A DNA stretch of 64,000 nucleotides, taken from assembly GCA_045589455.1 (NCBI GenBank), contig JAZNPC010000010.1, positions 149-64,148 on the forward strand, given 5' to 3'. The stretch is from Kiritimatiellia bacterium. GTDB taxonomy: Bacteria; Verrucomicrobiota; Kiritimatiellia; RFP12; UBA3636. The position numbers were made by a program, and so were the translations under genes. The notes below the pieces were generated by a model, which made no database searches, had not been told where the DNA came from, and saw nothing but the letters and a program-made list of their open reading frames with translations. Of this stretch, positions 7,886 to 64,000 are shown one piece after another; the stretch's first letter is position 1; each line of letters begins with the position of its first letter.

Positions 7886-7924
7886 TATCTGTGTTTCTGC
7901 GGGAGATAATATTGCGAAGCTCAT

Positions 7925-24908: not shown

Positions 24909-24989
24909 CTTGGATAGCTATAAATTAGATAATTAGATTTTATATTTCTATCGGGGTGGCGTATGTGATGGCTAGGGCGACGGCTAATC

Positions 24990-25330
24990 CTACGCTGGCT
25001 CACGCGGAGACGCAGAGACGCAGAGCTAGCGTGATGCACGTGACGCCGAAGGGACGCAGAGACGCTGAGGGCGCGGAGGACGCGGGGCTGGTGTGATGGG
25101 TGTGGTGTTGGGGCGCGAATGCGCACATTACCGCTTGTTGTTGCCTTGTCTTATTGCGAAATCTAACGAAGCAATAAGGCAACTGCCAAGCGCTAATGTG
25201 TACGACCCACCAAGGCTTTTAAGACGAGGAGCGTGATGCACGTGATGGTGTTTTGGATGCACCAAGCTTGGTTGTGCGCTGCGCCGCGTGCGGCGCAGAG
25301 AACGCGCTTGTGTGATGGCTAGAAGTGCTA
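24990..25330. repeat. GC-rich ~260 bp intergenic repeat element, copy A. It contains a gacgcagag heptamer/nonamer tandem, gtgatgcacgtgacgccgaagggacgc, the hairpin cttattgcgaaatctaacgaagcaataag, and the GC hairpin ctgcgccgcgtgcggcgcag
   Basis: About 93% identical to 50247-50510 by direct reading. It is placed immediately 3' of the ABC permease gene. Confidence 0.85.
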
Positions 25331-28731: not shown

Positions 28732-29352
28732 ATGGAACTCGGAGCAATTAAAAATCTAGCCTATGAGCTAATTGGCAATAAGGAAGAAGTTCCTCACGGA
28801 GTGGGATACCGCCTTGCTCATGGTTATAGAGTTGGTGCAATTGCAGAATGGATTGCACATGAGCTAGGAGAGAGCGATGAGCTACTTTTTGTTGCTGGCA
28901 TACTTCATGACATTGGTAAGGATAAGGCAGGACATCCAGAGGATGATGGAATAATGCATGGTCCGCGCGGAGCCGAGATTATTCGCAAGCAATTTATTCA
29001 TTTTATGAGCATAAATGAGCTTCAAAGAGTTGCTACAATGGTTGAAAATCATAATGCTCGCCCCAAAAGTAAGTGGTTTATCGATAAAGAGAAGCCACAG
29101 CATTCAACTGAGGTCTTAATACTTCAGGATGCAGATTTGCTAGATCATTTTGGTGAAGAAGGCATAAATATTACACTTAATTGGGGACGTTTTTTCAAAA
29201 AAACTCGCGAACAAATCCTTAAGGAATGGAAATATGGTGAGAGAGTAGCTCGAATGCATGAAGAGGTGCGCCGCTCTCTTAATTTTGATGTGTCAGTTCG
29301 TGAGTTTGATCGACGCCTAAAAATCATGCAGGATTACTTTTTAAAATTTTGA
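28732..29352 (+). CDS. HD-domain phosphohydrolase
   Basis: Has the HD motif (GILHDIGKD) and downstream His/Asp residues (LQDADLLDHFGEEG). Confidence 0.8.
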   Translation: MELGAIKNLAYELIGNKEEVPHGVGYRLAHGYRVGAIAEWIAHELGESDELLFVAGILHDIGKDKAGHPEDDGIMHGPRGAEIIRKQFIHFMSINELQRVATMVENHNARPKSKWFIDKEKPQHSTEVLILQDADLLDHFGEEGINITLNWGRFFKKTREQILKEWKYGERVARMHEEVRRSLNFDVSVREFDRRLKIMQDYFLKF

Positions 29353-29475
29353 TTTGTCAGTTTTAGGGTTTTAATTACGTATTAATACTATAGCAGGATT
29401 GTTTTGCTAAATTTTGATTTGTCAGTTTTGGGGTTTTAATTACGTATTAATACTATAGCAGGATTGTTTTGCTAA
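29344..29475. repeat. Two tandem copies of a ~64 bp direct repeat (attttgatttgtcagtttt[a/g]gggttttaattacgtattaatactatagcaggattgttttgctaa), followed by a truncated third start
   Basis: Read directly. The first copy overlaps the stop codon of the HD-domain gene. Confidence 0.85.
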
Positions 29476-40779: not shown

Positions 40780-41559
40780 ATGAATATTAAGCAGGTAGAA
40801 AAAAAAGCCTACATAATTTCATTTATTGTACATGCAGTACTAATAGTGGGGCTTGTTGTGGCTTCGATAATTAACGAGTTTTCTTGTACTCAAGAGCCCG
40901 TTGATGATGCCATGCCAATAGAGTTCACTGTTGACGTATCTTCTTTTGAGCAACAAGACGAACCAGTGGGAGATTTAATTGATGATTTAGAGCCCGAACC
41001 AGAACCCGAGCCAGAGCCAGAGCCAGAACCCGAGCCAGAGCCTGAGCCAGAGCCAGACCCTGATGCAGTGTCTGAGCCAGAGCCAGAGCCTCAACCTGAA
41101 AGACCTAGGCGCAAGCCTATTCAGACTTCTGATAAGGTTGTTATGATTAACCAGCCAAATATTCAACCACCTCCTTCTACACCTTCTCCAAGGGAAAGAA
41201 GTGATGATCTTACAGAAGAAGAGGTTAAGAAGCTTCTTGAAATTGGAGCAACAGCATCGGATCATACTTCGGTCCCTGGCGAACGTGAGCGTTGCCTTGC
41301 ATTGGTGTATAAGAAATTCTATGAAGCATGGCGTCGTCCAAGTCTCGCACCAACAGATGTTGCACGTGGTGCTGAGTTGACAATTTGGTTGGGCGATAAT
41401 GGTAGTATAAAAAAATATGAGCTTACTCGTTCTTCCGGTAATCGTCAGCTTGATGCTTCTGTTAAAGATGCTGCTCGTGTTGTTCGCCGTATACCAGGAT
41501 TAACATCAGGATTTATTAGAGATAATAGGACTTTAACAATCGAATTTAACCTCGAATAA
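40780..41559 (+). CDS. tonB: TonB-like energy transducer with a (Pro-Glu)n rigid spacer
   Basis: N-terminal TM (IISFIVHAVLIVGLVVASII), a long EPEPEPEP… tract and a Pro-rich segment, then a C-terminal TonB-like domain (…GSIKKYELTRSSGNRQLDASVKDAA…). Confidence 0.7.
   Translation: MNIKQVEKKAYIISFIVHAVLIVGLVVASIINEFSCTQEPVDDAMPIEFTVDVSSFEQQDEPVGDLIDDLEPEPEPEPEPEPEPEPEPEPEPDPDAVSEPEPEPQPERPRRKPIQTSDKVVMINQPNIQPPPSTPSPRERSDDLTEEEVKKLLEIGATASDHTSVPGERERCLALVYKKFYEAWRRPSLAPTDVARGAELTIWLGDNGSIKKYELTRSSGNRQLDASVKDAARVVRRIPGLTSGFIRDNRTLTIEFNLE
40981..41055 (+). repeat. Hexanucleotide tandem repeat (gagcc[a/n] ×~12) encoding the TonB (PE)n spacer
   Basis: Read directly: gagcccgaaccagaacccgagccagagccagagccagaacccgagccagagcctgagccagagccagac. 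Confidence 0.8.
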
Positions 41560-50246: not shown

Positions 50247-50510
50247 CAGCTAGCGTGATGCACGTGACGCCGAAGGGACGCAGAGACGCAGAGACGCAGA
50301 GCTAGCGTGATGCACGTGACGCCGAAGGGACGCAGAGACGCAGAGGGCGCGGAGGACGCGGGGCTGGTGTGATGGGTGTGGTGTGGGGCGCGAATGCGCA
50401 CATTCCCGCTTGTTGTTGCCTGGGTTTATTGCGAAATCTAACGAAGCAATAAGGCAACTGCCAAGCGCTAATGTGTATGACCCACCAAGGCTTTTGAGGT
50501 TGGGGGCGTG
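50247..50510. repeat. GC-rich ~260 bp intergenic repeat element, copy B. It has an internal duplication of the agctagcgtgatgcacgtgacgccgaagggacgcagagacgcagag segment
   Basis: Near-identical to 24990-25230. It lies immediately 3' of the fucosidase gene, at the transition to the AT-rich island. Confidence 0.85.
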
Positions 50511-51192
50511 AAAAACAATCAACAATCAACAGTCTACTGCCAACAATGGAGTCTTAACGTCTAATGTCGTTCAATTGTCTATCGTCTAATTGTCACATAG
50601 GAACACCCGTTTGGTGAAGGCAACCCGCCTACTAGCTCAGGAGAAATATAGTCTATCTCCACATCTTCCTTAGGCGTGAGCCATCGCAGACGCCATCTCC
50701 GCTCGAGATGTAAAATCTATAATTGATAATTCTTGAATTATCATTTTATAAGTGATAATATATCGCTACAAAATGTTAAAAGATTGATTTTATACGCTTA
50801 GCGTAATTCGTCTTCGTGAAAATCGCCAAATTTAAACGAGTATGGACGGACAAGCGCGTGCAAGGTGTATTGTACCATTTGCGCGTCTCTATGTTTGCTC
50901 ATACAAGGTGTTTGGCGATACCTCACGGAGGCAAATTTTAGGGACGCGTTTTTTTATTCTCTAAAATAGGCTTCCATGCTAAGAAATAAAAATTATATCT
51001 ATTGGCATAAGTTTTTTATTACTAAATAGGAATAAATATAGAAATCGGTATCTGTTTGTAGAGTTAAACATAGGAGAAAATTATGCGTGACGATATAAAT
51101 TTTGATGAAGAAAAGCTAAAAAAGAGCAGTCCAAGTATGCCCCAAAGGATGAGAATGAGATTAAAGAGAAGGTTTTAAATAAAGAAGAAAAG

Positions 51193-51504
51193 TTGAATAG
51201 CAAGTTTTCTACAATAGAAAAGTTAAAGCCTTATTGGGACGATTTTAAAACAATTTTCTCTATGATTAAGGATTGCGTTACTGGAAAGTATAAAGAAACA
51301 CCATTTACAACAATTGCTAGCTTAGCTGGTGTATTAATTTATGTTCTTTCTCCAATTGATTTAATGGCTGATTTCATTCCACTTCTAGGATATGTGGATG
51401 ATGCTGCAATCTTGGGTCTTGCCATTAAACTAGCTGCTGCAGATATTGAAAAATATCGTCAGTGGAAAAAGACAATAGATGTAGAAGAAAAGCAGGTCAA
51501 CTAA
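51193..51504 (+). CDS. YkvA/DUF1232-family small membrane-associated protein. The frame is disrupted relative to an upstream ATG
   Basis: Carries the SPIDLMADFIPLLGYVDDAAILG motif characteristic of DUF1232. The annotated frame begins with TTG. A strong AGGAG RBS plus ATG at 51083 lies in the +1 frame, and the two frames would join if the A6 run at 51118-51123 were A7. Confidence 0.6.
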   Translation: MNSKFSTIEKLKPYWDDFKTIFSMIKDCVTGKYKETPFTTIASLAGVLIYVLSPIDLMADFIPLLGYVDDAAILGLAIKLAAADIEKYRQWKKTIDVEEKQVN

Positions 51505-51584
51505 TTTTCCCCAAAGAGCAAATCTAGCCTAGATTTCTTAGCTAGATTTGCTTTCCCCATAAATATATTCAAGAAATTGTAATT

Positions 51585-52172
51585 ATGAATAACATAGATA
51601 CTGGCCACGGAGCTGAAATTGCAGTAGGCTTAAGGAGTTGCTCTTCGATTATCCTTGTCCCTATTATTGCAATATGCTCAGGCATTATCATTGGTAAAGA
51701 GTACGGAACAGTTGTTGGTATTCTTGGTGGTATTGTTTGTAGCTCTATCTTTTTTAAGCTTTACCATAGGTTTATCGCTACGCAGATTAAAGGACTTACA
51801 GTACTAGACTGCTTGATTCCGTTTTTAGTTTCACTCGTTTCTGGTGTCATTTTTGCTCCAGTGTCACTTTTTTCAGCTAGTGTCTTTTCAATAGCCACAT
51901 GTATTTACTCTGGAGTACTATTGTCAGCAACACTATTCTTGTATAAGGCACAAAAAGTGTCTGTAGGATACCTTGTATTCCCATTTCTAGTCTTTATGTA
52001 TGAAATATTACCTATAGAGCTACCAACGGATCTAGATAACATATTTGCGCTTTCTGGTAATACAGTTCATCAGTTTATTGCATTAACTGCAGCTAAGATG
52101 AAAAAATCGCTCTCTAATGATTCTCCTACCTCAACAGATGACGAGACCATTATTGATGTCGACCCAGAGTAG
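51585..52172 (+). CDS. Polytopic membrane protein of unknown function
   Basis: 195 aa with 4-5 hydrophobic helices and an acidic C-terminal tail. It lies within the AT-rich island. Confidence 0.5.
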   Translation: MNNIDTGHGAEIAVGLRSCSSIILVPIIAICSGIIIGKEYGTVVGILGGIVCSSIFFKLYHRFIATQIKGLTVLDCLIPFLVSLVSGVIFAPVSLFSASVFSIATCIYSGVLLSATLFLYKAQKVSVGYLVFPFLVFMYEILPIELPTDLDNIFALSGNTVHQFIALTAAKMKKSLSNDSPTSTDDETIIDVDPE

Positions 52173-52248
52173 AAGCATATTTGGTAAATATATTTTATTT
52201 TGCATAGTATCATTTCTATGATGTAATAAAGAAATAAAGAAAGTTTTT

Positions 52249-53868
52249 ATGTGTTTATGGATTGTTGTTGGTTCTATTTTAGCATTTATTATAACAATAT
52301 GTATTATGTATTGGAATGTTGTTAAAATTTTATTAATTATAGTTGCTATAATTTATGTGCTATCTTTATTAGTCAGCTTAATTAAAAAAGTAATTAAAAA
52401 GGTTGAGCATGAAAATGAGTTGAAATTATTTGCTATAAATGAAGAGAATAAAACCGAAGAAAAAAAACAAAACATAAATTTCAAAAAGTTGTCAAATATA
52501 CTTTTTGTATCAACAATAGATTTAAGAGAGCATCCATTAAAAAACGAAAAGTATAAAAAACGTAAACAATATTTTGAAGTATTAATGTTTCTAATTAATA
52601 ATTCAGTGATTTCAGAAAAATTGAAAGATTTTACTGAAGGTCGTTTATCTATGTATTTTGATTGTTTGTTGCCTGAATTGATGTCTGAAAAGAGTGAAAT
52701 ATTAAATCAAAAAATAGAAGAAAAGGTTTTTATAAAAAAATTAATGCCTTTGTTTTATTTTGCTAATGTAAAGTATTCATATATATTTCTGTCAGATTTG
52801 TGTTTGTTTCTTCAAGAAGAATCGCTAATTTCATATGCAATAGTTGTATTAAAACGATATCTACCCAAATTTATGTGGGCAAAAATAGATAAAAAATATT
52901 ATAGAATTAAAAATTTATCAGTAATATCTGAAAAATATAAGCAGATTGCTGTTTTAATAGAGCAATATAAAACCAATATTGAATTTTTTGCTAGAAAGGA
53001 AAAAAGGGTAATTGTTACAGCTCTTGTTAGTGCAGGAAAATCAACACTAATTAATTCTTTAATTGGAGAAAGATTAACTAGAACAAAATCGGAAATTTGT
53101 ACAAGTAATTTGGCATACATATATAATAAAGCCTATAATGATGGGACCCTTCATTTTTATCAAAATGATAATAAAAAATCTTCTATAAACCAATGTGTGT
53201 GCTTTAATGCAAGTGAAGATGACATAAATACTTATGATATAAATGAAAAAATAAATGTTTCTGCATCGTTTTTAGGTGTTTACTCAAATTGGTCTAGAAT
53301 TTGTTTAATAGATACACCAGGGGTTGATGCTGCTATTAATGTGGAACATGGGGAGTGTACAAAAAAAGCTCTTTTAAATGAGTGTTATGATATGATTCTT
53401 TATGTGGTAAGTCCAAATCAAATAAGTACGGATTCACAAAAAGAATATTTAAAATGGATATTAAATAATCTTCCTAAAAAAAAGATAGTTTTCGTTATTA
53501 ATAAATTAGATACATTAAAACCTAAAGAAGATAGTATAGCTGATACAATATTTAATTTTTATAAAGATTTATGTGATATCGGTTTTAAGAATCCTACTAT
53601 TTGTCCAATATCTTCTTATTTTTCTTTCTTATTAAAGCAAAAAATATCAGGAAAAGACTTTTCCGAAGATGAAATTGACGATTTTAGGTTTTATAGTAGT
53701 AGGTTTTCTAAACCATTTTATAATTTATCAGGATATTATAACGAAGAATTAGAAGATATTAATCTTGAAATAAATGATTTATTGCAATTAAGCAAACGTT
53801 GTGGTTTATATGGTATTGAAAAAATAATAAATGAGGAAATAAATGAAAAAAATATTTATAAAATATAA
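52249..53868 (+). CDS. Bacterial dynamin-like GTPase 1, N-terminally membrane-anchored
   Basis: Two N-terminal TM helices. The dynamin-type G domain has G1 (ALVSAGKSTLINSLIG), G3 (LIDTPGVD) and G4 (FVINKLD) motifs. The 3' end overlaps the next gene. Confidence 0.8.
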   Translation: MCLWIVVGSILAFIITICIMYWNVVKILLIIVAIIYVLSLLVSLIKKVIKKVEHENELKLFAINEENKTEEKKQNINFKKLSNILFVSTIDLREHPLKNEKYKKRKQYFEVLMFLINNSVISEKLKDFTEGRLSMYFDCLLPELMSEKSEILNQKIEEKVFIKKLMPLFYFANVKYSYIFLSDLCLFLQEESLISYAIVVLKRYLPKFMWAKIDKKYYRIKNLSVISEKYKQIAVLIEQYKTNIEFFARKEKRVIVTALVSAGKSTLINSLIGERLTRTKSEICTSNLAYIYNKAYNDGTLHFYQNDNKKSSINQCVCFNASEDDINTYDINEKINVSASFLGVYSNWSRICLIDTPGVDAAINVEHGECTKKALLNECYDMILYVVSPNQISTDSQKEYLKWILNNLPKKKIVFVINKLDTLKPKEDSIADTIFNFYKDLCDIGFKNPTICPISSYFSFLLKQKISGKDFSEDEIDDFRFYSSRFSKPFYNLSGYYNEELEDINLEINDLLQLSKRCGLYGIEKIINEEINEKNIYKI

Positions 53869-56134
53869 CCCTTATTATTTGGAAACAAAATTTACTATAG
53901 ATGGTAAATCTCTTCCTACAAATAGTGAAATTAATGCACGTATTAATCAACCTGATGTGCGTCTACAAGAGTGGATAGAAGATTTACCTCAGCTTTTGAT
54001 TGATGAATGTAACGATAAGAAGTTTGACATTCAATTTCATGGTACTATATTAGATTACGAAGATGTTAAAGAGGTGTTTGAATGTGCTTCTAATGAAGAA
54101 AAGTTAGAGGTGAAGCTAGATAGAATACCTGCAAAAGAAACATCTGAAAAGGAATCTTTAATTGAAGATGTATTTAAAGAAATACAAAATGGACCTATTG
54201 ATGAACTACGTGATGAGAAAATAATTAATGCATTTAATAATGCAAAAAATAGTGAGTTTGAAATTTGTGTTGTAGCTACAATGAGTGCAGGTAAGTCTAC
54301 ATTGATAAATTCAATGCTTGGAGACAAAATGATGCCTTCAAGTCAAGAGGCTTGCACGGCCATTATTACTAGAATTAAAGATGTTGATTCAAATGTTAAT
54401 TGGCATGCTAAAGTATTTGGAAAAGATAACGAACTATTAGAATCAGTTGAAAGTCTTACATATGAAGAGATGGATAGATTTAATAGAGATTCTAAAGTAT
54501 CTTTAATACAAGCCGAAGGTAATATTCCTTTTGTAACCTCACAAAAAACTTCACTAGTTTTAATTGATACTCCTGGTCCAAATAATTCTAGAGATAAAGA
54601 ACATGAAAAAGTTCAAAGTAGATTTTTAGGTAAGTCGTCTAAAGCACTTGTCCTTTATATTATGGAAGGGACATATGGAAATAATGACGACAATGAATTG
54701 CTTCGTAAGGTTGCAGAGAGTATGAAGTCAGGCGGAAAGCAATCTAAAGACCGTTTCCTTTTTGTTATAAATAAGGTTGATGATCGTAAGCAAGAAGATA
54801 GTAAAATGGAGGATATGCTTTTAAGAATTAAGGACTATTTACAAATACATGGAGTTAAAAATCCAAATTTATATCCTGCAGCAGCTTTACCCGCACTTAA
54901 CATAAGATTAATGCAATCACATAATGACATTCTTGATGAAGACATTCTTGATGAAACAGAATTTAAAGTTAAAAAGTTAAATAGAAATGTTGATTTGCAT
55001 TTAGAAAAGTATTCTTCATTACCATTAAGCCTTAGAAGAAAAATTGATTCTGATTTAGAAATTGCTAAAAATAATGGAGATGTGTTTACACAGGCCTTAA
55101 TTCATACAGGAATAGTTTCTGTTGAGACGGCGATTCGTCAATATGTTGAAAAATATGCAAAAACAGCGAAAATTAAAAATATTGTAGATACTTTTAAAGG
55201 AAAATTAGAGGCTGTTTCTTATGAACAAGAAATGAAGAAAGAGATTGCTAAAAATGAAGAAGAGTGTGAAAAGATTACTGCACAAATAAGTTCGATAGAG
55301 AGTCAAATTAAAGACGGAAAAAATGCTCAAGTATTTAAAAAAGAAGTTTCAAAAGCATTGAAAAAAGTTAAAAAAGAAATAGAGGAAAAGATTAATCAAA
55401 ATGTAGAAGAGTTTCAAAATGAATTATTGGAAATAATTAACACATATGGGAATGATGATATTCCCGTTGAAAAAATCTCTTCAATTTTGTCTCAGGTAAG
55501 TAAAAAGGTAAAGTCAATCGAAGCAAATTTTCAAGTTGCTTTAGAGGGATCAATCAATACTGGATTAATATCAACAAGTAAATATCTTTTAGAAGAGTAT
55601 AAAACAAAACTATCATCGTTAACAAAAGATATAGATTTGAAAAACCTTTCAGGAGTTTTTATTGACCCATTGAAGTTAATGTCAGGTAGTGTTCCAAGTA
55701 TAGATAGCTTAAATATTGATGTAGAAGAAAAAGAAGAGGTAGTAGGTGAAGAATGGATTGAAAATACAAACAAAAAATGGTGGAAGTTTTGGACTTGGTT
55801 TGATGATCCTGGTCATTATATAACAAAGTATAAAACTGTAAAATATGTTTTAGGTAGCGAATTAGCTCAAGAAATGCTCGCACCTATAGAGGATACATTA
55901 ATTCAAAACGGAGAATCTGCATTAAAACAAGCGTTATATCAATCTCAAAGAATAGCGGAAAAATATGAGAAAGAGTTTGTTCGTTTAGATGATGTATTGA
56001 CAAAAAAATTGCGTGAGTTAAAACAAATTACTTCTGATAAAACAAACAAAGAGAAGTTGATTAACGATGCACAAGGAAAATTAAATTGGTTAGATAATAT
56101 TAAGAAAAGAGTTGATTCGATTCTTGAAATATAA
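53843..56134 (+). CDS. Bacterial dynamin-like GTPase 2 with a long helical stalk
   Basis: G1 (VATMSAGKSTLINSMLG), G3 (LIDTPGPN) and G4 (FVINKVDD). There is about 440 aa of charged, coiled-coil-like C-terminal sequence. The start overlaps the preceding DLP gene by 26 nt. Confidence 0.85.
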   Translation: MKKIFIKYNPYYLETKFTIDGKSLPTNSEINARINQPDVRLQEWIEDLPQLLIDECNDKKFDIQFHGTILDYEDVKEVFECASNEEKLEVKLDRIPAKETSEKESLIEDVFKEIQNGPIDELRDEKIINAFNNAKNSEFEICVVATMSAGKSTLINSMLGDKMMPSSQEACTAIITRIKDVDSNVNWHAKVFGKDNELLESVESLTYEEMDRFNRDSKVSLIQAEGNIPFVTSQKTSLVLIDTPGPNNSRDKEHEKVQSRFLGKSSKALVLYIMEGTYGNNDDNELLRKVAESMKSGGKQSKDRFLFVINKVDDRKQEDSKMEDMLLRIKDYLQIHGVKNPNLYPAAALPALNIRLMQSHNDILDEDILDETEFKVKKLNRNVDLHLEKYSSLPLSLRRKIDSDLEIAKNNGDVFTQALIHTGIVSVETAIRQYVEKYAKTAKIKNIVDTFKGKLEAVSYEQEMKKEIAKNEEECEKITAQISSIESQIKDGKNAQVFKKEVSKALKKVKKEIEEKINQNVEEFQNELLEIINTYGNDDIPVEKISSILSQVSKKVKSIEANFQVALEGSINTGLISTSKYLLEEYKTKLSSLTKDIDLKNLSGVFIDPLKLMSGSVPSIDSLNIDVEEKEEVVGEEWIENTNKKWWKFWTWFDDPGHYITKYKTVKYVLGSELAQEMLAPIEDTLIQNGESALKQALYQSQRIAEKYEKEFVRLDDVLTKKLRELKQITSDKTNKEKLINDAQGKLNWLDNIKKRVDSILEI

Positions 56135-56145
56135 AGGAGTATATT

Positions 56146-56664
56146 ATGCCTTTAACTAAAGCATTTTATGAAGCAATAAGAACAAAAAATGTTCGTCGAG
56201 TTAGAATAATGTTAAAAAATAGCCTTGTTGTTGATCCATCCTTTTCTGAATATAAATCAATGATTGATATTGCATCTAATTTAGAAGGATTGTTTGATGA
56301 GCATGATGGAAAGATTTTTAATAATGAAAAAAGTTTTTGGAACGATGAATATGTAAGTAAAGAAATGGCAAGACTTATTTCTAATTTTTCTAAGGAAAGA
56401 ATTGATCATTTAAAGGATGTTATTCGTTTCTTGAATCCGATGAATACTAATCAACAAAAGCATTATGGTAAATCCAAAAGGTTTTCACATCAAAAGAGAA
56501 AAATAATTACAGGAGCAGTTGTTGGTGCTACAATTGGTGCATTGTTAGGTAATGTAATAAATGACGAGAATGGAATTGTGTCAGTATTATTCGGAGTTGC
56601 AGGAGCTATAGCTGGTAGTGTTGTTGTGAATTGTATCTCTAATGAGGATAAAGGAAATGAGTGA
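56146..56664 (+). CDS. Small protein with a C-terminal glycine-zipper membrane segment
   Basis: 172 aa. The N-terminal ~120 aa form a soluble domain, followed by ITGAVVGATIGALLGNV…VLFGVAGAIAGSVVV (GxxxG repeats). There is an AGGAG RBS. Confidence 0.6.
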   Translation: MPLTKAFYEAIRTKNVRRVRIMLKNSLVVDPSFSEYKSMIDIASNLEGLFDEHDGKIFNNEKSFWNDEYVSKEMARLISNFSKERIDHLKDVIRFLNPMNTNQQKHYGKSKRFSHQKRKIITGAVVGATIGALLGNVINDENGIVSVLFGVAGAIAGSVVVNCISNEDKGNE

Positions 56665-59600
56665 TAGAGTTGTTTTGGTCAAAGACCATAATTTGAACAA
56701 TTCAATTTTGACGGATGATAATCTTATTGGACAAGGAGAGGGTAAATTTCCTTCGATAACTAAATTGGAGTCAAATTTAAAAGAATCAAGTAAGCTTGTA
56801 CAAGATATTGTTTTGAAAAATTATTTACACAAGTTAAAAGATTTAGAAGTTGTTCCTTTGCCCAATGAATTCAAAGATATAAATAAGCTTCGAATTTTTG
56901 AAATAAACGAAATGGTTTATCAAAAGGATGAATATTCAACCTATAAATTTGCTTCTGTTTTTAGCTCTTTACAAAGCTTAGATTGTGGAGTGTTTATTAT
57001 TGTCAATAGCAATGGAGAAAAAACAGATTTTTATATGGGAGTTCGTTCTAAAGATAATAATCGTACTACTAAATCTTTAAAAGATACTTTGAAAAATGCT
57101 TTGATTGGGCATTTCCCTGGTGTTAAAGTGAAAGATATGTTAGACCCAGAAGTAGAGGATTTTTTATCTGAAATTTCAAAAAATAATGTATCTTCAGTAT
57201 CATGTATTGCTAATAATAAAGATGAAGATTTTAAGAATAATGATAATTTTATCCAAGGTCTTGAAAAATTGGCTTTAGCAATGCAAGGGAAAAAATATAC
57301 TGCTATAGTGCTAGCAAACTCTATTAATAATAGTCAAATTTCGGATGTTCGGAGTGCTTATGAAACCATTTACACTCAGATATCTCCTTTTGCTAATATG
57401 CAACTTTCATATGGGACGAATACTGCTTTAAGTATTTCTGATGCTTTGTCTAAAGGAGCTACAACAGGAAGTTCTTATTCTAAAAATATAGGTACTTCTA
57501 GAGGAACTTCAACATCAAGTGGGGATACATATTCCGAATCAGCTTCAAAGCCTGACATTTTATCTTCTGGATTAAAGATTGCGGGGGCTGCTATTTTAGG
57601 AGCCGCTGCTATAGCTACTGCTATTCCTACAGGAGGGGTTAGTTTAGCAGTAGCTGGAGCAGCTATAGTGAATTCAATTCCAATGGTAACCAAAACCAAA
57701 GGTCGTTCTCACTCAAAAAACAAATCTCAAAGTGTAACATCTAACGAAGGTGAAACATTTGGAGAAAATTCTAGTACTTCTGAAAATGCTACCCATACTA
57801 TAGGAGAAACCATTGGAAAAACAGAAAATATGCAGTTAACAATGCAAAATAAAACATTGTTAAATACATTGGAGAAAATAGATTGTCAGTTACAACGTCT
57901 TAATGAGTGTGAAAGTTTAGGGATGTGGGAATGTGCTGCGTATTTTATGTCAGATAGTTTAGAAACTGTTGAGATGGCCGCAGGAACATATAAGGCTTTA
58001 ATGAAAGGCTCTAAATCAGGTGTTGAAACATCCGCAATTAATACTTGGGGATGGTATGAAAAAAATAAAATTCCAATATTATGTGAATATATTACAAATT
58101 TTATACACCCAATATTTGCCTACCCTACAGATGGAGAATTTATCCCAGTGACTCCAGCATCAATGGTAAGTAGTAATGAGCTTGCAATTCAAATGGGGTT
58201 GCCTAGGAAATCTGTATGTGGTTTTCCTGTTGTTGAACATGCTGAATTTGGAAAAGAGGTTGTTTCTAACTTAGACATTAAATCCTCAAGAACTATTCCT
58301 ATTGGGAATATTTTTTCTATGGGTTCAGAAACAAAAACACCAGTTAAATTAAGTATAGATTCATTGACAATGCATACATTTGTGACTGGTTCAACAGGTT
58401 CAGGTAAGAGTAATACATTATATGAGATTTTGTATCAATTGCATAATTTCAATAATGTCCCTTTTCTAGTAATAGAACCAGCAAAAGGTGAGTATAAAAA
58501 CATTTTTGGAAATTCTCATAATGTGTCAGTATATGGAACGAATGCAAAGAAAACTGAGGTCTTAAAAATAAACCCTTTTAGTTTCCCAGATGATATTCAT
58601 GTATTAGAGCATTTGGATAGACTAGTAGAAATATTTAATGTATGTTGGCCAATGTATGCTGCGATGCCCGCAATTTTGAAGGAAGCAATTGAAAAGGCAT
58701 ATATTTCTGTTGGTTGGGATTTGATTGATTCAATAAATGTCAATGGAAATATATTCCCAAATTTCACTGATGTTTTAGAACAAATTGAGATTGTTATTAA
58801 TGAGTCTCAATATTCAAAAGATTGTAAAGGAGATTATTCTGGTGCTTTAACAACGAGAATTCGCTCTATGACAACAGGTTTAAATCGTCTTATTTTTACA
58901 CAAAATGAAATTTCTAATTCTGATTTATTTGATAAAAGTGTTATTGTTGATTTAAGTAGAGTTGGATCTACAGAAGAGAAAGCTTTAATTATGGGAGTTC
59001 TTGTAATGAAGCTGAATGAATATAGAATGACATCAGGGAAGATAAATAGCTCATTGTCTCACATAACAGTTTTGGAAGAAGCACATAATTTGTTGAAGCG
59101 TACATCAACAGAACAAAGCTCAGAGAGTTCAAACCTTCTTGGTAAATCAGTAGAAATGCTCTCAAATTCTATCGCAGAAATGCGTACATATGGAGAGGGA
59201 TTTATTATTGCTGATCAAGCACCAGGTTTGTTAGACATGTCTGTAATACGAAATACAAATACAAAAATTATACTTCGTTTGCCAGAGAAAAGTGATAGAG
59301 AATTAGTTGGTTATGCTGCTTGTTTAAAGGATAATCAGTTAGATGAAATCTCTAAGCTGCATAGAGGCGTTGCGGTAATATATCAAAATGATTGGATAGA
59401 GCCAGTTCTTGTACAGATTAGAAAATGCAATTTAGAAGAGAATTCTTATTCATACAACCCGCCATCAAAACAAACATCAAAACCGAATGTCTTGAAGCAA
59501 TTGATAAATTTTTTAATATGTAATAATGTTAGGGAAAAATTAGATTTCTCTATTGCAGATATAGAGCAAGGAATAGATTTTTTAGCTTTGTCTTCGTCAA

Positions 59601-59950
59601 ATTTAAATTTTATTAAAAAACTACTTGGAGAATATAAAAAGTTTAATTCATTAGAAATATGGAGTAACCATAAATATAATTCACTTGCTTTAAATATAGT
59701 GAATATTCTTAATCTTAGAAATAAAATTGAGCAATTAGTTTTAAATTCATCTAATAACTCATCGTTAACACATGATTTAAAAGAAATTGTTTTAGATATA
59801 TTCCCAAAATCTTCTGAATCATTTATTATGACTTTAATACATTTGTTTATGAAGGACTTTAGTTTAAGTCGAGAGGAAAATGAACAACGTACTAAAATAT
59901 ATTTAAATTGGTTAAGTTATATTACAAAATATGGAGTAAAAAATGATTAA
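56657..59950 (+). CDS. Large fusion protein with an N-terminal unknown domain, a Gly/Ser/Thr-rich glycine-zipper hydrophobic segment, and a C-terminal HerA/FtsK-superfamily (DUF87-like) ATPase
   Basis: The ORF runs from 56642. The ATG at 56657 has an AAAGGA RBS. The hydrophobic Gly-zipper segment is LKIAGAAILGAAAIATAIPTGGVSLAVAGAAIV. Walker A (VTGSTGSGKSNTLYEIL) is encoded at about 58384-58410, and Walker B (ITVLEEAHNL) at about 59059-59085. The 3' end overlaps the next ORF by 8 nt. Confidence 0.8.
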   Translation: MSDRVVLVKDHNLNNSILTDDNLIGQGEGKFPSITKLESNLKESSKLVQDIVLKNYLHKLKDLEVVPLPNEFKDINKLRIFEINEMVYQKDEYSTYKFASVFSSLQSLDCGVFIIVNSNGEKTDFYMGVRSKDNNRTTKSLKDTLKNALIGHFPGVKVKDMLDPEVEDFLSEISKNNVSSVSCIANNKDEDFKNNDNFIQGLEKLALAMQGKKYTAIVLANSINNSQISDVRSAYETIYTQISPFANMQLSYGTNTALSISDALSKGATTGSSYSKNIGTSRGTSTSSGDTYSESASKPDILSSGLKIAGAAILGAAAIATAIPTGGVSLAVAGAAIVNSIPMVTKTKGRSHSKNKSQSVTSNEGETFGENSSTSENATHTIGETIGKTENMQLTMQNKTLLNTLEKIDCQLQRLNECESLGMWECAAYFMSDSLETVEMAAGTYKALMKGSKSGVETSAINTWGWYEKNKIPILCEYITNFIHPIFAYPTDGEFIPVTPASMVSSNELAIQMGLPRKSVCGFPVVEHAEFGKEVVSNLDIKSSRTIPIGNIFSMGSETKTPVKLSIDSLTMHTFVTGSTGSGKSNTLYEILYQLHNFNNVPFLVIEPAKGEYKNIFGNSHNVSVYGTNAKKTEVLKINPFSFPDDIHVLEHLDRLVEIFNVCWPMYAAMPAILKEAIEKAYISVGWDLIDSINVNGNIFPNFTDVLEQIEIVINESQYSKDCKGDYSGALTTRIRSMTTGLNRLIFTQNEISNSDLFDKSVIVDLSRVGSTEEKALIMGVLVMKLNEYRMTSGKINSSLSHITVLEEAHNLLKRTSTEQSSESSNLLGKSVEMLSNSIAEMRTYGEGFIIADQAPGLLDMSVIRNTNTKIILRLPEKSDRELVGYAACLKDNQLDEISKLHRGVAVIYQNDWIEPVLVQIRKCNLEENSYSYNPPSKQTSKPNVLKQLINFLICNNVREKLDFSIADIEQGIDFLALSSSNLNFIKKLLGEYKKFNSLEIWSNHKYNSLALNIVNILNLRNKIEQLVLNSSNNSSLTHDLKEIVLDIFPKSSESFIMTLIHLFMKDFSLSREENEQRTKIYLNWLSYITKYGVKND

Positions 59951-60896
59951 TAATTTTGACATTAGTAATATCAATAAATTTAACAATGAACTAAAGGATT
60001 GTAATTTATATAAGCAGATTGAAGGAGAAGATAAAAAAAAATCAGGAATAGAAAAATCTCTGGATAATGTTTGTACTCAAGAAACAAATCCAAGTGTTGA
60101 TGAACAAGGACATGTATATAGAAAAGAGAATGGAGATTTGCTCCCTAATAATAATTTCGTGATGGGTGAAAATACATTTAAAACAGATGATAATGGCAAA
60201 ATCTACGCTATAGATGGAAAACTTGTTCCAGAAAATAAGTATGAATTAAATTGTGCTTCGTATGAAACAGACGAATTGGGACGTATTAGAAAAGTAGTTG
60301 CTCAAGACTTAAAGATAACACCAGAAAACTTAAGAGATTCCACAGCACAAACTTTAGTTGGCGGCAAAGATAGATTGCTAGGAGATAATGGCGGTCATTT
60401 GGTTGCTCGTATACATGGGGGCGATGCTGGTATTGGAAATCAAGTAGCTGTTCGCGACGTAATTAATAAAGGTGATTGGAAGATTGATGAGAATACAATA
60501 AGTGATTTAATAAAAAAAGGTAAAAATGTCAGGACGGAAGCGGAAATTTTTTATGATGGTAATTCTGAGCGACCATCTAAAATAGAGATTTCAATCTATT
60601 CTAATGGAGAAAAAATAAGCGAAGCTGTTTATGATAACAATATTGGATCGAAGGATTTATTAGGATTGGAAAAACTTAAAGATATATTAAGCCCTAGTGA
60701 TTATCAAAACCTTTGCGATGAAATTTCTCAATTAGAAAAAAATGGAGATAAGGTTAGTATTACTTCTGTAACATTTAAGTCAGGAGAAGATCCTTCAATA
60801 GCAGTGAGAAATGAAACAACGGAAAAAACTTGTTATTGGCCATGGAATACACGCAATGAAGGAAAAACATTGAGTGATGTATTTCACAATTCATAA
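59943..60896 (+). CDS. Putative effector protein translationally coupled to the HerA-like ATPase. It carries a His/Gly/Asp-rich patch compatible with a metal-dependent (His-Me-finger-like) nuclease or hydrolase
   Basis: 317 aa with a GGAG RBS. The conserved-looking segment is KDRLLGDNGGHLVARIHGGDAGIGNQVAVRD. The functional call is speculative. Confidence 0.55.
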   Translation: MINNFDISNINKFNNELKDCNLYKQIEGEDKKKSGIEKSLDNVCTQETNPSVDEQGHVYRKENGDLLPNNNFVMGENTFKTDDNGKIYAIDGKLVPENKYELNCASYETDELGRIRKVVAQDLKITPENLRDSTAQTLVGGKDRLLGDNGGHLVARIHGGDAGIGNQVAVRDVINKGDWKIDENTISDLIKKGKNVRTEAEIFYDGNSERPSKIEISIYSNGEKISEAVYDNNIGSKDLLGLEKLKDILSPSDYQNLCDEISQLEKNGDKVSITSVTFKSGEDPSIAVRNETTEKTCYWPWNTRNEGKTLSDVFHNS

Positions 60897-60916
60897 ACAA
60901 CAGGTAGGTGTAAATA

Positions 60917-61309
60917 ATGGAAATAACTATAACCTATGAAGAGGTTTCTAATATAATAAAAACCAAATCTAATGTAAATGCGACATTTACAATGATTGAC
61001 AGCGAATCAATAAGTGTTAAAGTTAAACCTGGATTGCTTATTCCTGCGGTTAATATAACCTTAAAATTAGAAAAAGATGCTAAAGAGTATAAAATTCGTT
61101 ATGGCTCTGGTGTTGTGTCTCTTCTAGTAACAAAAATAGTAAATTTGTTCGTAAATGATAAACTACCTGAATTTGTCAGATTAGATACATCGAATAATAC
61201 TTTATCTTTTGATTCTACAATTAAGCATAATGGGATTGTTGTAGATATTAAGGATATTACATTTTTAGAAGAAAAAATTTCAATATCTTTATTTTTAAAA
61301 GATTTGTAA
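60917..61309 (+). CDS. Small hypothetical protein of 130 aa immediately downstream of the putative effector, a possible partner or immunity-like protein
   Basis: ORF with an AGGTG RBS. No motifs recognised. Confidence 0.5.
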   Translation: MEITITYEEVSNIIKTKSNVNATFTMIDSESISVKVKPGLLIPAVNITLKLEKDAKEYKIRYGSGVVSLLVTKIVNLFVNDKLPEFVRLDTSNNTLSFDSTIKHNGIVVDIKDITFLEEKISISLFLKDL

Positions 61310-61734
61310 AATTATCAGTCATCTCATATTGCTCAACCTAAATTCGGTGTTGCGCATCTGAGTTATTCACCAGATTATTCTAATGTCAAAATCATCACTT
61401 AACAAAATCAATGACCGGCTTTAATTATGCTACAATGAAGGGTTAAAAAAAGCAACAATCAAAGCATTGTCTCCTAAGTATTATGTATTTGTAGAAGTTT
61501 GATAGGTTTTTGGAATAAAAATCATTGTCTATTTTATTAGAGTTAGTATTGTGATTTGTAAGCATTTGTAGTTGTATTTTTGTTCCACCTTCCATAAGAT
61601 TTATTCGTCAAATGAGGAATAAACAAATGTAGGCGGGATGTGCTGCTAGGGTTCCGTGAAATCGCCAAGGCCGTATTTCGGCAATATGATGAATGACCTA
61701 ACACCATTCCGCTTACTTCTTTTAAGGAGATTAT

Positions 61735-62451
61735 ATGAACGAAAACATTTTGCAAGCAAAACTAGATAAATTGTTTGATAATTGGAAGGCAGCAATAGAT
61801 GCTTGTCCAGAAATTCCTGCAGAAATTAAGGAATGCTTCGTGCGCGATGGCTTCTATCCAGGCTACCTAAACCAAAAGTGTAAGGTGCTGTTTGTGGCTC
61901 GCGAATCACTTAGTGTTGAAGGAGATTATATAAAAGAGGTTTTTGATGCATATAAAAGTAAACGTGTTGGTGGCAAAAATATCAATCAGTATCAATTCCA
62001 TGCGTTAATGATGTATATAGCATATGCTCTAAATAATAATTGCTTTGATTGGAATAGCATTCCTTGGGCAGAAAAGCTCTGCGAGACATTTGGTACGCCT
62101 GGCGGACTTAGCTTCGCTTTTATGAATTTGTCTAAATTCAGTAATTGGTCGAAATCTAGTTGGCAAAGTAATTGGAATTTGATAAATTCTTCTCTAAATG
62201 TTAGTGGCAACGATTCTTTCATCAAACAGGAAATTGAATTGCTAGACCCAGATGTAATTATTACTATGAATTTAGATGGTAATTTAAGTTACTTGGGTGA
62301 AATGCGCAAGATTGTTAATACCACCGATATCAATAAATATGCTTACAAGATCAATGGTAAGGAAATACCTCTCTACGATATGTGGCATTTTTCTGCCCCA
62401 AGTAAGTCGCCAAGAGGAAATTATTTGGAGCCACTTAGTAAATTAGTTTAA
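61735..62451 (+). CDS. Hypothetical protein of 238 aa
   Basis: Strong AAGGAG RBS and AT-rich codon usage consistent with the island. It has a weak resemblance to a nucleotide-binding-fold N-terminus (KVLFVARES) and a WHFSAPS segment. No confident assignment is possible. Confidence 0.55.
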   Translation: MNENILQAKLDKLFDNWKAAIDACPEIPAEIKECFVRDGFYPGYLNQKCKVLFVARESLSVEGDYIKEVFDAYKSKRVGGKNINQYQFHALMMYIAYALNNNCFDWNSIPWAEKLCETFGTPGGLSFAFMNLSKFSNWSKSSWQSNWNLINSSLNVSGNDSFIKQEIELLDPDVIITMNLDGNLSYLGEMRKIVNTTDINKYAYKINGKEIPLYDMWHFSAPSKSPRGNYLEPLSKLV

Positions 62452-62465
62452 AAGGGAGAAAAAAC

Positions 62466-62666
62466 ATGGCAAAGCAACGTGTTGATTTGACAGATAAGAA
62501 GTGTGCTACCTGTCGTTGGTGGCAAGGTGATCGTGAGGTGATATTTTGGTCTCGTAAGCCATTTAAAGTCGAGTGCGATGCACAAGGTATGTGTCCATCC
62601 TGCAAGCAAAATAAGACCTATAGCTTTAGCTGCAGAAATTGGGTTCCATGGGAAAAGCTTCCATAA
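62466..62666 (+). CDS. Small zinc-ribbon protein with CxxC…CxxC
   Basis: 66 aa with KKCATCRWW…GMCPSCKQNK. A GGGAG RBS precedes it, 14 nt after the preceding gene. Confidence 0.5.
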   Translation: MAKQRVDLTDKKCATCRWWQGDREVIFWSRKPFKVECDAQGMCPSCKQNKTYSFSCRNWVPWEKLP

Positions 62667-62749
62667 TGCTACGTTTGACAGTTAATTACTGAATTTAGAT
62701 TAAAAATATAAATGAGGTTTTATAACTTAAAGTAAGGAAAAAAGTAATA

Positions 62750-64000
62750 TGAGAAGTTGTCTAACTGTGTTTTTAGGAATCGTTATTATTGGTGCTATTC
62801 TTCTGATATATTTCTTTTGGGAAGCAATAATAGCGTTATTATTAGCGTTGTTACAAATAGTTTTGACATTTATTGCAATAGTGGTGGGAATTGTGGTAAT
62901 GATTGCTGTAGTAAGTTATTTTAGGAAAAGAAAAATAAAAGAATTAGCACGCTTAGAGCGGGAAAGAAATGCTACATTAGAAAATAGAATTCGAGAAGAA
63001 GTTTATATACCGGTTCCTGAATATGCAGTTACATCTAACAATTATTATGAATGCTTACACATTCTTGAAGAAGCTGCAGATTATAAAAGAAGGATTGAAA
63101 ATGCTTCATCAAAGCTTGAAAAGAGCCAATTAAAAAATGAGTTGTCTAATTTCAGGCTTAAATCATTCTATGTTATTTCTCTACGTCATGAAGTTGATGA
63201 AGAAAAATGGGCGTCTTATGAAACAAAGATTAATAATATTTTATCTAAAAATGGTGATTGGAATTTGCTAAGAATAGAAGATAATGAAAAATCATTAGTT
63301 ACTGGAAAATACGAAGCTAAAGTAAAAAATAATTTAGGTAATATAACATTGAGGCTTGAGGATAATAATATCGATGATGTCATTAAAAGAGTTGATTTGA
63401 TTAAAGATTTTGATACATCAGGTATTTTTACAACGCACAGTTTGACTAAGCTTAATGATAAAACAGAACAAATGACTAAATGTTATGATTCTATTGAGAA
63501 GAGGTATAAAGAGCTATCGGATGTGGGTGAAATAACTAATAAGATTTTGGTAGAAGCTCGTGGTGCTGCATATCGGAATATTTTCTTAGGTGTAGAACTT
63601 TTGAATTATATTAGAGATAATTCTGGAGGAACGGGGCTAAAGGTTCAACATGATTCGGTTGATATGCAAGAAATTAATCTTTCAACAGATATTCCATTAA
63701 GTAGTTTGAATATTGATTTTGGAGAAGTTTTGAAAGTGGGTTTGTTTAACAAAGAAGGCACTAAAGCTATTTCAAGAATTTTGAAAAATCCTAAGAGTAT
63801 TGGTTACAATAGTGCTTTAATTGGCATTTCTGTTGCAAAAGAACTTTTAAAAGCACGTAATAAAGCAATTCAGGCAAATATAAAACAACAAAAGGAACTG
63901 ATAAAATGTATTGACGATGCTTGTAAAAATTATACAAATACTCGTGCTCAAATGTTTAGAGCAATTGAAATAGTTAAAGCGATTGTTCATTCAAATGCAG
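62750..64000 (+). CDS. N-terminally membrane-anchored protein of unknown function (partial; it continues beyond the window)
   Basis: ATG at 62750 after an AAGGA RBS. Two N-terminal TM helices (LTVFLGIVIIGAILLIYFFWEAIIALLLALLQIVLTFIAIVVGIVVMIAVV), then more than 350 aa of charged sequence. There is no stop before the window end. Confidence 0.6.

Follow-up and report, generated by a model that had tools for sequence, protein, structure and literature searches.

We analysed a 64,000-nucleotide stretch of a metagenome-assembled genome (MAG) contig from a gut or rumen bacterium of the Kiritimatiellae (contig JAZNPC010000010.1, positions 149 to 64,148; hereafter the window). Its right end carries a cassette of two dynamin-like GTPase genes (DLP1 and DLP2), a small glycine-zipper gene (GZ), a gene for a large HerA/VirB4-like ATPase and a nuclease toxin gene. 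The host methionyl-tRNA synthetase and glycogen branching enzyme fall, by exact sequence, in protein clusters named for Kiritimatiellae MAGs. The contig (65,090 nt) ends ~1 kb past the window. Base composition sets this region apart from the host, with GC of 0.25–0.35 from ~50.7 kb to the window end versus 0.41 in the host. All 13 of the 1-kb intervals between 51 and 64 kb lay at 0.250–0.346, below the minimum of the 50 preceding host intervals (0.351). GC at third codon positions (GC3) was 0.15–0.20 in the cassette genes versus 0.32–0.38 in metRS, glgB and a fucosidase gene, which are host genes of the same window. By segment, GC was 0.300 in the imported block, 0.32–0.34 in the conserved flanks of the hotspot in which it lies, and 0.407 in host positions 1–50246.

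Eleven open reading frames (ORFs), all on the + strand, run from 51193 to the window end (Table 1), and three pairs overlap: DLP1 and DLP2 by 26 nt, GZ and the ATPase by 23 nt, and the ATPase and nuclease by 8 nt. The named genes of the imported block, whose gene count was given as six, are DLP1, DLP2, GZ, the ATPase and the Endonuclea_NS_2 toxin. All of these cassette ORFs are intact in the window, and the GTPase G motifs, the Walker A motif and the catalytic motif of the nuclease are retained. An earlier reading of the sequence, made without database searches (the original prediction), had described a sharp drop in GC from about 50.5 kb onwards, a repeated intergenic element at 50247–50510 and eleven tightly packed, co-oriented genes, and all of these are real. 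Its calls of a DUF1232 protein, two dynamins, a HerA-type ATPase and a nuclease each scored above the Pfam cut-off, and a membrane-inserting segment in the ATPase was recovered by hydropathy. The call of a glycine-zipper protein stood only in part, with the two C-terminal hydrophobic segments present and the Pfam matches sub-threshold.

Table 1 Features of the low-GC end of the window and of the repeat that precedes it.
Feature	Position	Strand	Description
GC-rich repeated intergenic element	50247-50510		GC 0.598; second copy 25002-25236, 91-100% identity, families D8, D9, D11
Left flank, including DUF1232/YkvA gene (51084-51504)	50708-51491	+	Pfam DUF1232 E = 1.8e-12; hotspot-resident
195-aa multi-pass membrane protein	51585-52172	+	Hydrophobic segments; hotspot-resident, not cargo
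DLP1, shorter dynamin-like GTPase	52249-53868	+	Pfam Dynamin_N E = 8e-16, 58.9 bits (cut-off 27)
DLP2, long dynamin-like GTPase, 763 aa	53843-56134	+	Pfam Dynamin_N E = 1.3e-16, 61.5 bits (cut-off 27)
GZ, 172 aa	56146-56664	+	Conserved soluble N-domain and C-terminal glycine-zipper transmembrane (TM) pair; overlaps ATPase start
Membrane-anchored HerA/VirB4-like ATPase, 1102 aa	56642-59950	+	Pfam DUF87/HerA E = 9e-15, 55.8 bits (cut-off 23.2)
Toxin, 317 aa	59943-60896	+	Leader aa 1-~45; Endonuclea_NS_2 DNase aa 99-220 (Pfam E = 1e-20); C-terminal domain
130-aa lineage-restricted orphan gene	60917-61309	+	Immunity-gene position, yet hotspot-resident
135-nt remnant, 3' end of PDC-S29-like gene	61417-61550	+	97% identity to L006 8287-8421
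Right flank: 238-aa gene and 66-aa Cys-rich gene	61735-62666	+	94-97% identity in L005-L010; clusters include Kiritimatiellae MAG proteins
ORF running off window end, >=417 aa	62749-64000	+	N-terminal TM region (hydrophobic 1-61), then coiled coil

Dynamin-like GTPases, glycine-zipper protein and ATPase

Both GTPases fall in the dynamin superfamily, scoring above the Pfam cut-off and carrying the GKS/T, DTPG and NK[LV]D motifs (SAGKST as G1, DTPG as G3 and NKLD as G4 in DLP1). Compared with the same genes at three related loci (L001–L003), DLP2 aligned over its full length at 51–58% identity and DLP1 from residue ~83 on at 34–41%. The nearest solved relatives of both are the Nostoc bacterial dynamin-like protein (BDLP) and mitofusins, with weak E-values (best for DLP2: Nostoc BDLP 2j68, E = 2.6e-5). 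Read from the ATG at 52249, DLP1 has 539 aa, the first 80 of which form a two-TM extension that no Bacillota homologue has; a start at the in-frame TTG at 52489 would give 459 aa, the length of the homologues. The extension, if real, would anchor DLP1 in the membrane of its new host. DLP2 contains a conserved aromatic patch (KKWWKFWTWF, ~aa 637–646), which is likely a membrane-insertion paddle. The hydrophobic segments of GZ span residues 120–138 and 142–166, its Pfam matches are to glycine-zipper and SLATT_1 families, and it shares 38–45% identity with the gene in the same position at L001–L003.

The ATPase has a conserved N-domain (aa ~40–260), a Ser/Thr-rich linker with a hydrophobic hairpin (aa ~265–400), the ATPase domain itself (aa ~545–935, Walker A GSGKSN at 586–591) and a helical C-domain (aa ~945–1098). 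The hydrophobic segment is Gly/Ala-rich and occupies aa 306–350 within the Ser/Thr-rich stretch. There is a single ATPase domain: the Pfam FtsK_SpoIIIE profile reached 22.2 bits (cut-off 24) and matched one stretch only (aa 558–630), no VirB4-family Pfam profile matched, and TrwB_AAD_bind matched only at aa 569–626. Profile matches in the Protein Data Bank (PDB) were 8yho, 8wiv and 4d2i, and the closest solved sequence relatives are antiphage HerA proteins. By fold (Foldseek, E ~1e-9), the core resembles SIR2-HerA, DUF4297-HerA, archaeal HerA, the VirB4 C-domain and DndH-C. The full-length structural model was poor (mean pLDDT 48.6, with the N-terminal half below 50), and the N-domain was modelled separately on 84 diverse sequences. 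Its best fold matches were VirB4 and EccE and not HerA, with Foldseek support that was not significant.

Relatives of the ATPase numbered more than 1,500, of which the best 120 were 60–68% identical over the full length, and no Bacillota relative exceeded 68%. Among 1.84 billion representative proteins, the N-domain recurred in 801 clusters at 50% identity, with full-length members of ~1,000–1,200 aa. A query with the N-terminal half from locus L086 returned only 5 matches, and the Ser/Thr-rich stretch in that query may explain this.

A conserved module in Bacillota and beyond

With one genome scanned for each species, relatives of the ATPase turned up in at least 576 species genomes, the majority of them from Bacillota. 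Among the other hosts are Veillonella, Dialister, Fusobacteriota, Synergistota, a spirochaete and Succinivibrio. One gene order is shared by contigs of Clostridium perfringens, Paenibacillus and an Oscillospiraceae MAG: a WYL regulator comes first, then two dynamins of ~435 and ~763 aa, a protein of ~200 aa and the ATPase, whose stop codon is overlapped by a nuclease gene, and a gene of 92–125 aa stands last. We then surveyed 80 fetched loci with purpose-built profiles. DLP1, DLP2 and GZ stood together upstream of the ATPase in 53 of the 65 loci with enough flanking sequence, GZ being present in one or two copies (duplicated in 14 loci). Genes in the toxin and immunity positions followed downstream in 65 of 71, and a WYL regulator was present in 29 of 55. 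One subclade (L015, L016, L021 and L023) has an additional DLP2-like gene (~764 aa) after the immunity gene; the DLP1 profile found nothing upstream in these four, and three of them (L015, L016 and L021) have an unassigned ~480–520-aa ORF directly 5' of DLP2.

The same gene order is also found on two conjugative plasmids, p158B of Lactococcus cremoris (L091) and the IncI plasmid pTW10590_133 of E. coli TW10590 (L092). On p158B, the module adjoins three zinc-ribbon genes, an Fst toxin gene, an Abi gene and a bacteriocin locus. In 5,426 complete E. coli genomes this plasmid copy was the only one, also when the stringency was lowered, and consequently no link to the leoABC genes of strain H10407 could be made. 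Carriage by phages was rare (2 of 50,697 phage records and 11 IMG/VR contigs), and we rejected a phage-borne system on these grounds. A survey of 150 flanking proteins, uncontrolled and giving family counts only, returned a mix of defence, mobile-element and housekeeping genes. Among them were mad2/3/8 (Mads), PtuA (Septu), AriA (PARIS), AbiLi, PD-T4-6, DRT, and methyltransferase or restriction-modification (R-M) genes.

It is well supported that the segment at 52.2–60.9 kb reached this Kiritimatiellae genome by horizontal transfer, that it lies in a variable hotspot, and that it represents a conserved conflict module which is widespread but unnamed. Equally well supported is the composition of the full module: an optional WYL regulator, DLP1, DLP2, one or two GZ genes, the ~1100-aa ATPase, a toxin and an immunity protein.

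A shared leader in front of exchangeable toxins

The toxin position is occupied by unrelated domains in different loci. Among 76 proteins in this position, 13 Pfam families were matched overall, led by Colicin-DNase/WHH (33), Endonuclea_NS_2 (19) and LHH (9), with SprT-like or metallopeptidase, Gln_amidase (papain-fold glutamine deamidase), NERD and HNH domains in the minority. The 70 proteins in the immunity position included DUF6985 (19), SUKH/SMI1_KNR4 (18), YezG-like (3) and PoNi (1) families. These toxin and immunity families are the ones catalogued for exported polymorphic toxins (PMC3113570, PMC3482391).

At least six of the toxin families share a leader of ~45 residues, whatever domain follows, with a motif of roughly F-K-D/E-V-x-E ... 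R-F-x-D/E-S/C-P-L-G-K ... Y/L-D-K-P-L/I. The original prediction had called the window nuclease an effector coupled to the ATPase, and this coupling extends beyond the window: in 57 of 75 related loci, the end of the ATPase gene and the beginning of the toxin gene have 4 or 1 nt in common. Leader similarity followed ATPase similarity (Spearman 0.57), while toxin-domain similarity followed neither the ATPase (0.08) nor the leader (0.08), and toxin and immunity similarity were correlated at rho = 0.35; as the pairs in these comparisons are not independent, we relied on effect sizes and not on p-values. Two loci (L050 and L057) contain two complete toxins in tandem, one of peptidase or deamidase type and one WHH nuclease, each with its own leader and immunity gene. 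The toxin-immunity pair would appear to be an exchangeable cartridge placed behind a machine-specific leader. At the family level, the module has the hallmarks of polymorphic toxins, namely a conserved N-terminal region in front of variable toxin domains and known immunity families encoded downstream.

The window copy and its missing parts

The leader of the window toxin aligns with those of 75 related toxins. The catalytic DxGGH motif, the downstream Asn motifs and the C-terminal domain are all kept, save for a 7-residue gap in the latter. The natural end of the protein lies at about residue 307, the junction with hotspot DNA at 60883, and the last four codons and the stop in hotspot DNA. Because the imported DNA ends ~20 nt past the natural end of the toxin, the ORF runs on for ~10 residues into hotspot sequence.

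It is well supported that this copy has lost both the regulator and the cognate immunity gene. The window copy has no WYL regulator gene, unlike about half of the loci assessed, and no recognisable cognate immunity gene. The 130-aa gene that follows the toxin was considered as an imported immunity gene and rejected, as it is resident in relatives without the cassette and has no relative in the immunity position. A search against 69 immunity-position proteins found no relative of its product, one against 5.8 billion proteins found only relatives of at least 92% identity from the same lineage, and no family matched in Pfam, PADLOC-DB 2.0 or NCBIfam. The host may tolerate the nuclease because the cassette is silent, because it is decaying, or because the 130-aa protein is itself a new immunity protein.

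A variable hotspot with resident flanks

We compared the locus with six related Kiritimatiellae contigs (L005–L010), which were reached via the 66-aa gene. Window positions 50708–51491 are 96% identical to L006 6808–7598, and positions 60883–62666, with the 130-, 238- and 66-aa genes, match at 97%. Between these anchors the contents differ: 9.4 kb in the window, one 230-aa gene in L006–L009, and in L005 five genes, the first of which encodes a 186-aa membrane protein. The L005 cargo consists of an AAA ATPase gene similar to PADLOC IetA (E = 1.4e-27) with three further genes, and the 230-aa cargo of L006 is similar to the PADLOC candidate PDC-S29 (E = 4e-15). With flanks 94–97% identical and defence-type genes as the alternative cargo in relatives, the locus behaves as a variable defence or conflict hotspot. 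The horizontal acquisition and variable presence that had been proposed for this region are supported by these comparisons. The idea of a single 11-gene set is not, as five of the genes (DUF1232 and the 195-, 130-, 238- and 66-aa genes) are resident and only ~52.2–60.88 kb is cargo.

The left limit of the cargo is given by the 195-aa membrane protein, which is 57% identical to the 186-aa protein in the same position of the cassette-free L005, and therefore we place the imported DNA at ~52.2–60.88 kb. By these alignments, this 8.7-kb cassette is the only imported DNA, the remainder of the low-GC tract being resident hotspot DNA. The 195-aa protein had no family match in Pfam, PADLOC-DB 2.0 or NCBIfam, and neither had the 238- and 66-aa proteins. 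The 66-aa protein has six Cys and is plausibly a Zn ribbon. The pair of 238- and 66-aa genes forms the right hotspot edge in every relative and could contribute to making the site a hotspot. Alignment with L005 and L006 shows that the DUF1232 gene has a 1-nt deletion within an A7 run (~51118–51123), which splits its 138-aa ORF and leaves a 103-aa ORF from the TTG at 51193; either the gene is a true pseudogene or the assembly has an error in this homopolymer.

At the right junction, the 130-aa gene is 99% identical in the cassette-free L006–L010. The 135-nt PDC-S29-like remnant behind it in the window indicates that the slot formerly held an occupant of the L006 type. L006 itself has two copies of the PDC-S29-like 3' end (8287–8421 and 8954–9086) on either side of the 130-aa gene, and on this basis the gene looks like a small cassette that was inserted with duplication. 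Its left edge (CACAATTCATAA) is the same junction as that used by the dynamin cassette. Homology with the relatives ends at 62666, and the next gene in the relatives and in an independent assembly (L104) is a Peptidase_M15 gene. In the window this place is taken by the ORF at 62749–64000, which has no Pfam or PADLOC match and suggests a second variable slot.

No integrase was found in the visible part of the locus, no tRNA gene in the whole 64-kb window and no Rfam family at 49–64 kb, and scans for promoters and terminators gave signals no better than shuffled sequences. The GC-rich element at 50247–50510 is a host repeat outside the module and the last host-type sequence ahead of the hotspot. 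Host GC-rich intergenic repeats of several families (46–220 nt, 2–8 copies) occur at 1218–2090, 6650–7910, 24959–25236 and 50247–50511, and some copies form arrays between genes. Elsewhere in the window there is a 12-nt tandem repeat (GAGCCAGAGCCA...), probably encoding a Pro/Glu-rich stretch, at 40965–41099 within the ORF at 40780–41559, and an intergenic 65-nt tandem duplication at 29328–29457.

Functional interpretation and alternative explanations

The best overall explanation is an unnamed polymorphic-toxin machine, with export for interbacterial antagonism slightly favoured over abortive infection, and we would give it about an even chance of being correct. That the toxin is specifically exported or delivered comes a little short of that. 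In such a machine, the ATPase would be anchored at the membrane through its hydrophobic hairpin and through GZ, would recognise the ~45-residue leader of otherwise unrelated toxins, and would use ATP to move the toxin. The two dynamin-like GTPases would remodel or reseal the membrane at the toxin-handling site. The toxin would be exported, or packaged into membrane, for use against competing bacteria, and the producer and its kin would be shielded by the immunity protein. Over time the toxin-immunity pair would be swapped as a cartridge behind the machine-specific leader.

The gene content, its conservation, the toxin and immunity families, the co-variation of leader and ATPase and the insertion in the hotspot are observed, whereas we infer that the leader contacts the ATPase, which way the toxin travels and what the GTPases do. 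The shared leader, which co-varies with the ATPase, and the overlapping genes suggest that the ATPase handles the toxin through the leader. The membrane hairpin, the two-TM partner and the two dynamins would place this handling at the membrane. Export is favoured because the toxins and immunity proteins belong to families of exported toxins, because several substrates share one leader, because the ATPase has traits of secretion ATPases, and because LeoA offers a precedent, being a dynamin reported to promote toxin release in enterotoxigenic E. coli (ETEC) (PMC4159319). The original prediction had interpreted the region as a phage-defence island. An acquired, membrane-associated conflict module in a hotspot is what was found, but toxin trafficking fits at least as well, and phage defence is not singled out because the effector slot and the next gene hold polymorphic toxin and immunity families behind a machine-specific leader.

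Several observations weigh against toxin export, which is a proposal made from gene content. No component of the module spans the outer membrane, yet the module is found in diderms (E. coli, Veillonella, Fusobacterium, Synergistota and the Kiritimatiellae of the window), and the module toxins have no receptor-binding or entry domain. The WYL regulator in about half of the loci would fit antiviral defence as well or better, the alternative occupants of the hotspot slot are defence-type genes, and Mads, Septu, PARIS, Abi and R-M genes are among the neighbours of the module at other loci. Of the proteins with solved structures, those nearest to the ATPase in sequence are antiphage HerA proteins, and the correlations that tie leader to ATPase come from the non-independent pairs noted above. 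Finally, the window copy has an apparently intact nuclease but no recognisable immunity gene, which is explained by neither the export nor the abortive infection model.

A more specific version of toxin export is an unrecognised toxin-delivery apparatus, in which the VirB4/HerA-like ATPase would read the short N-terminal leader and hand interchangeable toxins to a membrane site. There the dynamins would cut or fuse membrane, budding vesicles or fusing with a neighbouring cell, in bacteria with single and double membranes alike. We regard this version as rather unlikely, though not implausible.

Abortive infection is the strongest competitor, and we hold it to be possible and clearly short of probable. 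Here the toxin would be kept silent by its immunity protein until phage-induced perturbation of membrane or DNA recruited the dynamins and activated the ATPase, which would pull on the leader, free the nuclease from the immunity protein and let phage and host DNA be destroyed. WYL repressors control BREX and CBASS and are typical of defence operons, and the regulator is present in 29 of 55 loci. The slot in Kiritimatiellae otherwise holds an IetA-like ATPase or a PDC-S29-like gene, the neighbours elsewhere include mad2/3/8, PtuA, AriA, AbiLi, PD-T4-6, DRT and methyltransferases, and the copy on the dairy Lactococcus plasmid adjoins an Abi gene. The lack of envelope-specific parts fits a spread over monoderms and diderms, antiphage HerA is the nearest sequence relative of the ATPase core, and the two-dynamin Eleos is a reported antiphage system. 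Dynamins can be antiviral, as for DynA, which is reported to protect B. subtilis (PMC8844932). Conversely, SUKH, YezG, PoNi, WHH, LHH, Colicin-DNase and Tox-PL1 are known from exported polymorphic toxins and not from Abi systems (PMC3482391, PMC3113570). Tandem leader-bearing toxins of different kinds resemble multiple secretion substrates, no full-length or above-cut-off match to a named system was found in PADLOC-DB 2.0 or NCBIfam, and the neighbour survey was uncontrolled, with many housekeeping genes among its families.

It is improbable, to our minds, that the window cassette is an inactive or decaying relic; on this view neither the regulator nor the immunity gene came with it, and the host tolerates it only because of silence or a crippled nuclease. 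The absence of the WYL and cognate immunity genes, the ~10 overlong residues of the toxin ORF, the 7-residue gap in its C-terminal domain and the frameshift in the neighbouring DUF1232 gene would all agree with decay, but the cassette ORFs are intact and the G motifs, Walker A motif and nuclease motif are kept. The arrangement also recurs at 97.6–98.7% identity in at least four other assemblies, indicating that the cassette persists in the population. L104 is colinear with window positions 57307–62675 at 97.6% identity and spans the right junction, and three assemblies from other samples (L105–L107) are colinear with 52630–59793 at 98% or more. In these three near-identical copies the ATPase is called as 911 aa owing to indels near the 3' end, which could be population variants with a truncated ATPase; indels in metagenome assemblies may equally be errors.

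There is very little probability that the cassette is two unrelated systems that happen to be adjacent, with a dynamin pair of the Eleos kind standing beside an independent HerA-nuclease pair. Each half does resemble a known two-gene system, with PADLOC LeoA and LeoBC matching the DLPs and PADLOC HerA matching the ATPase, and Eleos is defined as two genes. However, the cassette genes keep their order and overlap in 53 of 65 loci across several phyla and plasmids, the LeoA match covers 81 of 559 positions, and the NCBIfam scores are 38.7 versus a cut-off of 325 bits for LeoA and 60 versus 800 bits for HerA_antiphage. The least probable account, with next to no chance of holding, is that the join between Kiritimatiellae and Bacillota-like sequence is an assembly chimera: the abrupt change in composition and the 60–68% identity of the ATPase to Bacillota proteins might suggest one, but Kiritimatiellae-type sequence lies on both sides of the block, no Bacillota relative exceeds 68% identity, and the colinear L104 and three further assemblies, which span the right junction and internal genes, exclude a chimeric contig.

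Bacterial dynamins are widespread, and their cellular roles are mostly unknown. Two dynamins locked in an operon with a pumping ATPase and recognisable toxins offer a concrete, testable job for such proteins. If the module exports toxins, it would be a new route among the few bacterial toxin-delivery systems, common in gut and rumen Bacillota, and a dedicated delivery apparatus would be the first one built around bacterial dynamins. If it is antiviral, toxin-immunity pairs from warfare between bacteria would have been taken over into a new architecture of defence. The module goes unannotated in at least 576 species genomes, where its proteins are labelled 'ATP-binding protein' and 'dynamin family protein', and complete copies are available on plasmids of the culturable and tractable Lactococcus cremoris and E. 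coli. The arrangement of leader and cartridge further points to a means of sending cargo proteins of choice to the machine.

Comparison with known systems

The ten complete ORFs gave only partial matches to named systems in PADLOC-DB 2.0, NCBIfam and Pfam (LeoA, LeoBC, HerA, mad8, CedD and ser_rich_anae_1). All of the NCBIfam matches were far below their cut-offs, and the PADLOC LeoA and LeoBC matches covered part of the profiles. No literature joining dynamins, a HerA/DUF87 ATPase and toxin-immunity genes was found in openly searchable full text. The earlier remark that the combination was not recognised as a named system therefore stands for these sources.

Eleos is a reported antiphage system of two genes that encode the dynamins LeoA and LeoBC. 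Both Eleos and the LeoABC of ETEC resemble the module in that a shorter and a longer dynamin-like GTPase gene lie side by side in accessory or mobile DNA; the GTPase motifs match, and LeoA has a reported link to toxin release. Unlike the two-gene Eleos, the module continues after its dynamin pair with GZ, ATPase, toxin and immunity genes (53 of 65 loci). The PADLOC LeoA match is confined to profile positions 101–181, LeoBC matches DLP2 at E = 0.0013, and the NCBIfam LeoA profile that falls short is DLP_LeoA_gen.

The HerA-effector complexes SIR2-HerA (Nezha) and DUF4297-HerA, together with archaeal HerA-NurA, share the HerA-type core, provide the best PDB sequence and fold matches, and have an adjacent, exchangeable effector gene, commonly for a nuclease partner. 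Antiphage HerA proteins are soluble and ~500–600 aa long, whereas the module ATPase has ~1100 aa with a hairpin, an extra helical C-domain and an N-domain that is distinct by fold search, and it scores far below the curated HerA_antiphage family. The module effectors belong to polymorphic-toxin families with a common leader and immunity genes, and neither SIR2 nor DUF4297 occurs among the 13 Pfam families found in the 76 proteins of the effector position.

In the type VIIb secretion system (T7SSb; EssC with LXG toxins, as in EsaD-EsaG and YeeF-YezG), EssC has three ATPase domains versus one in the module ATPase. The module leader is only ~45 residues long, and two dynamins and GZ stand in place of the Ess membrane components. 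WXG100 and LXG are absent from the Pfam families of the 76 toxin-position proteins, and the conserved cassette has no Ess/Esa-type gene. For type IV secretion (T4SS) and conjugation, no relaxase, coupling protein, VirB6/8 or pilus gene was found in the cassette. In T4SS, the small two-TM VirB3 gene is paired with the ATPase VirB4. The module resembles this pairing in having a small two-TM gene (GZ) directly upstream of its ATPase, but unlike VirB4 this ATPase falls by sequence in DUF87/HerA. By gene content and profile scores, then, the module appears not to be Eleos, SIR2-HerA/DUF4297-HerA, T7SSb or T4SS. Functions in cell division, sporulation and conjugation were likewise rejected, given that the cassette has no such partners and that its distribution is patchy, on plasmids and in hotspots.

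Polymorphic toxin systems, as surveyed by Zhang, Aravind and colleagues in 2011–2012, provide a parallel for the toxin end of the module. In the accessible parts of these surveys, two dynamins with a HerA/VirB4-like ATPase are not among the trafficking modes and the word 'dynamin' does not occur, and the module toxins differ in being short, without repeats or presentation domains. What the two have in common is a set of variable C-terminal toxins behind a conserved N-terminal trafficking region, an immunity gene directly downstream, the same toxin and immunity families, and occasional second or displaced toxin-immunity modules.

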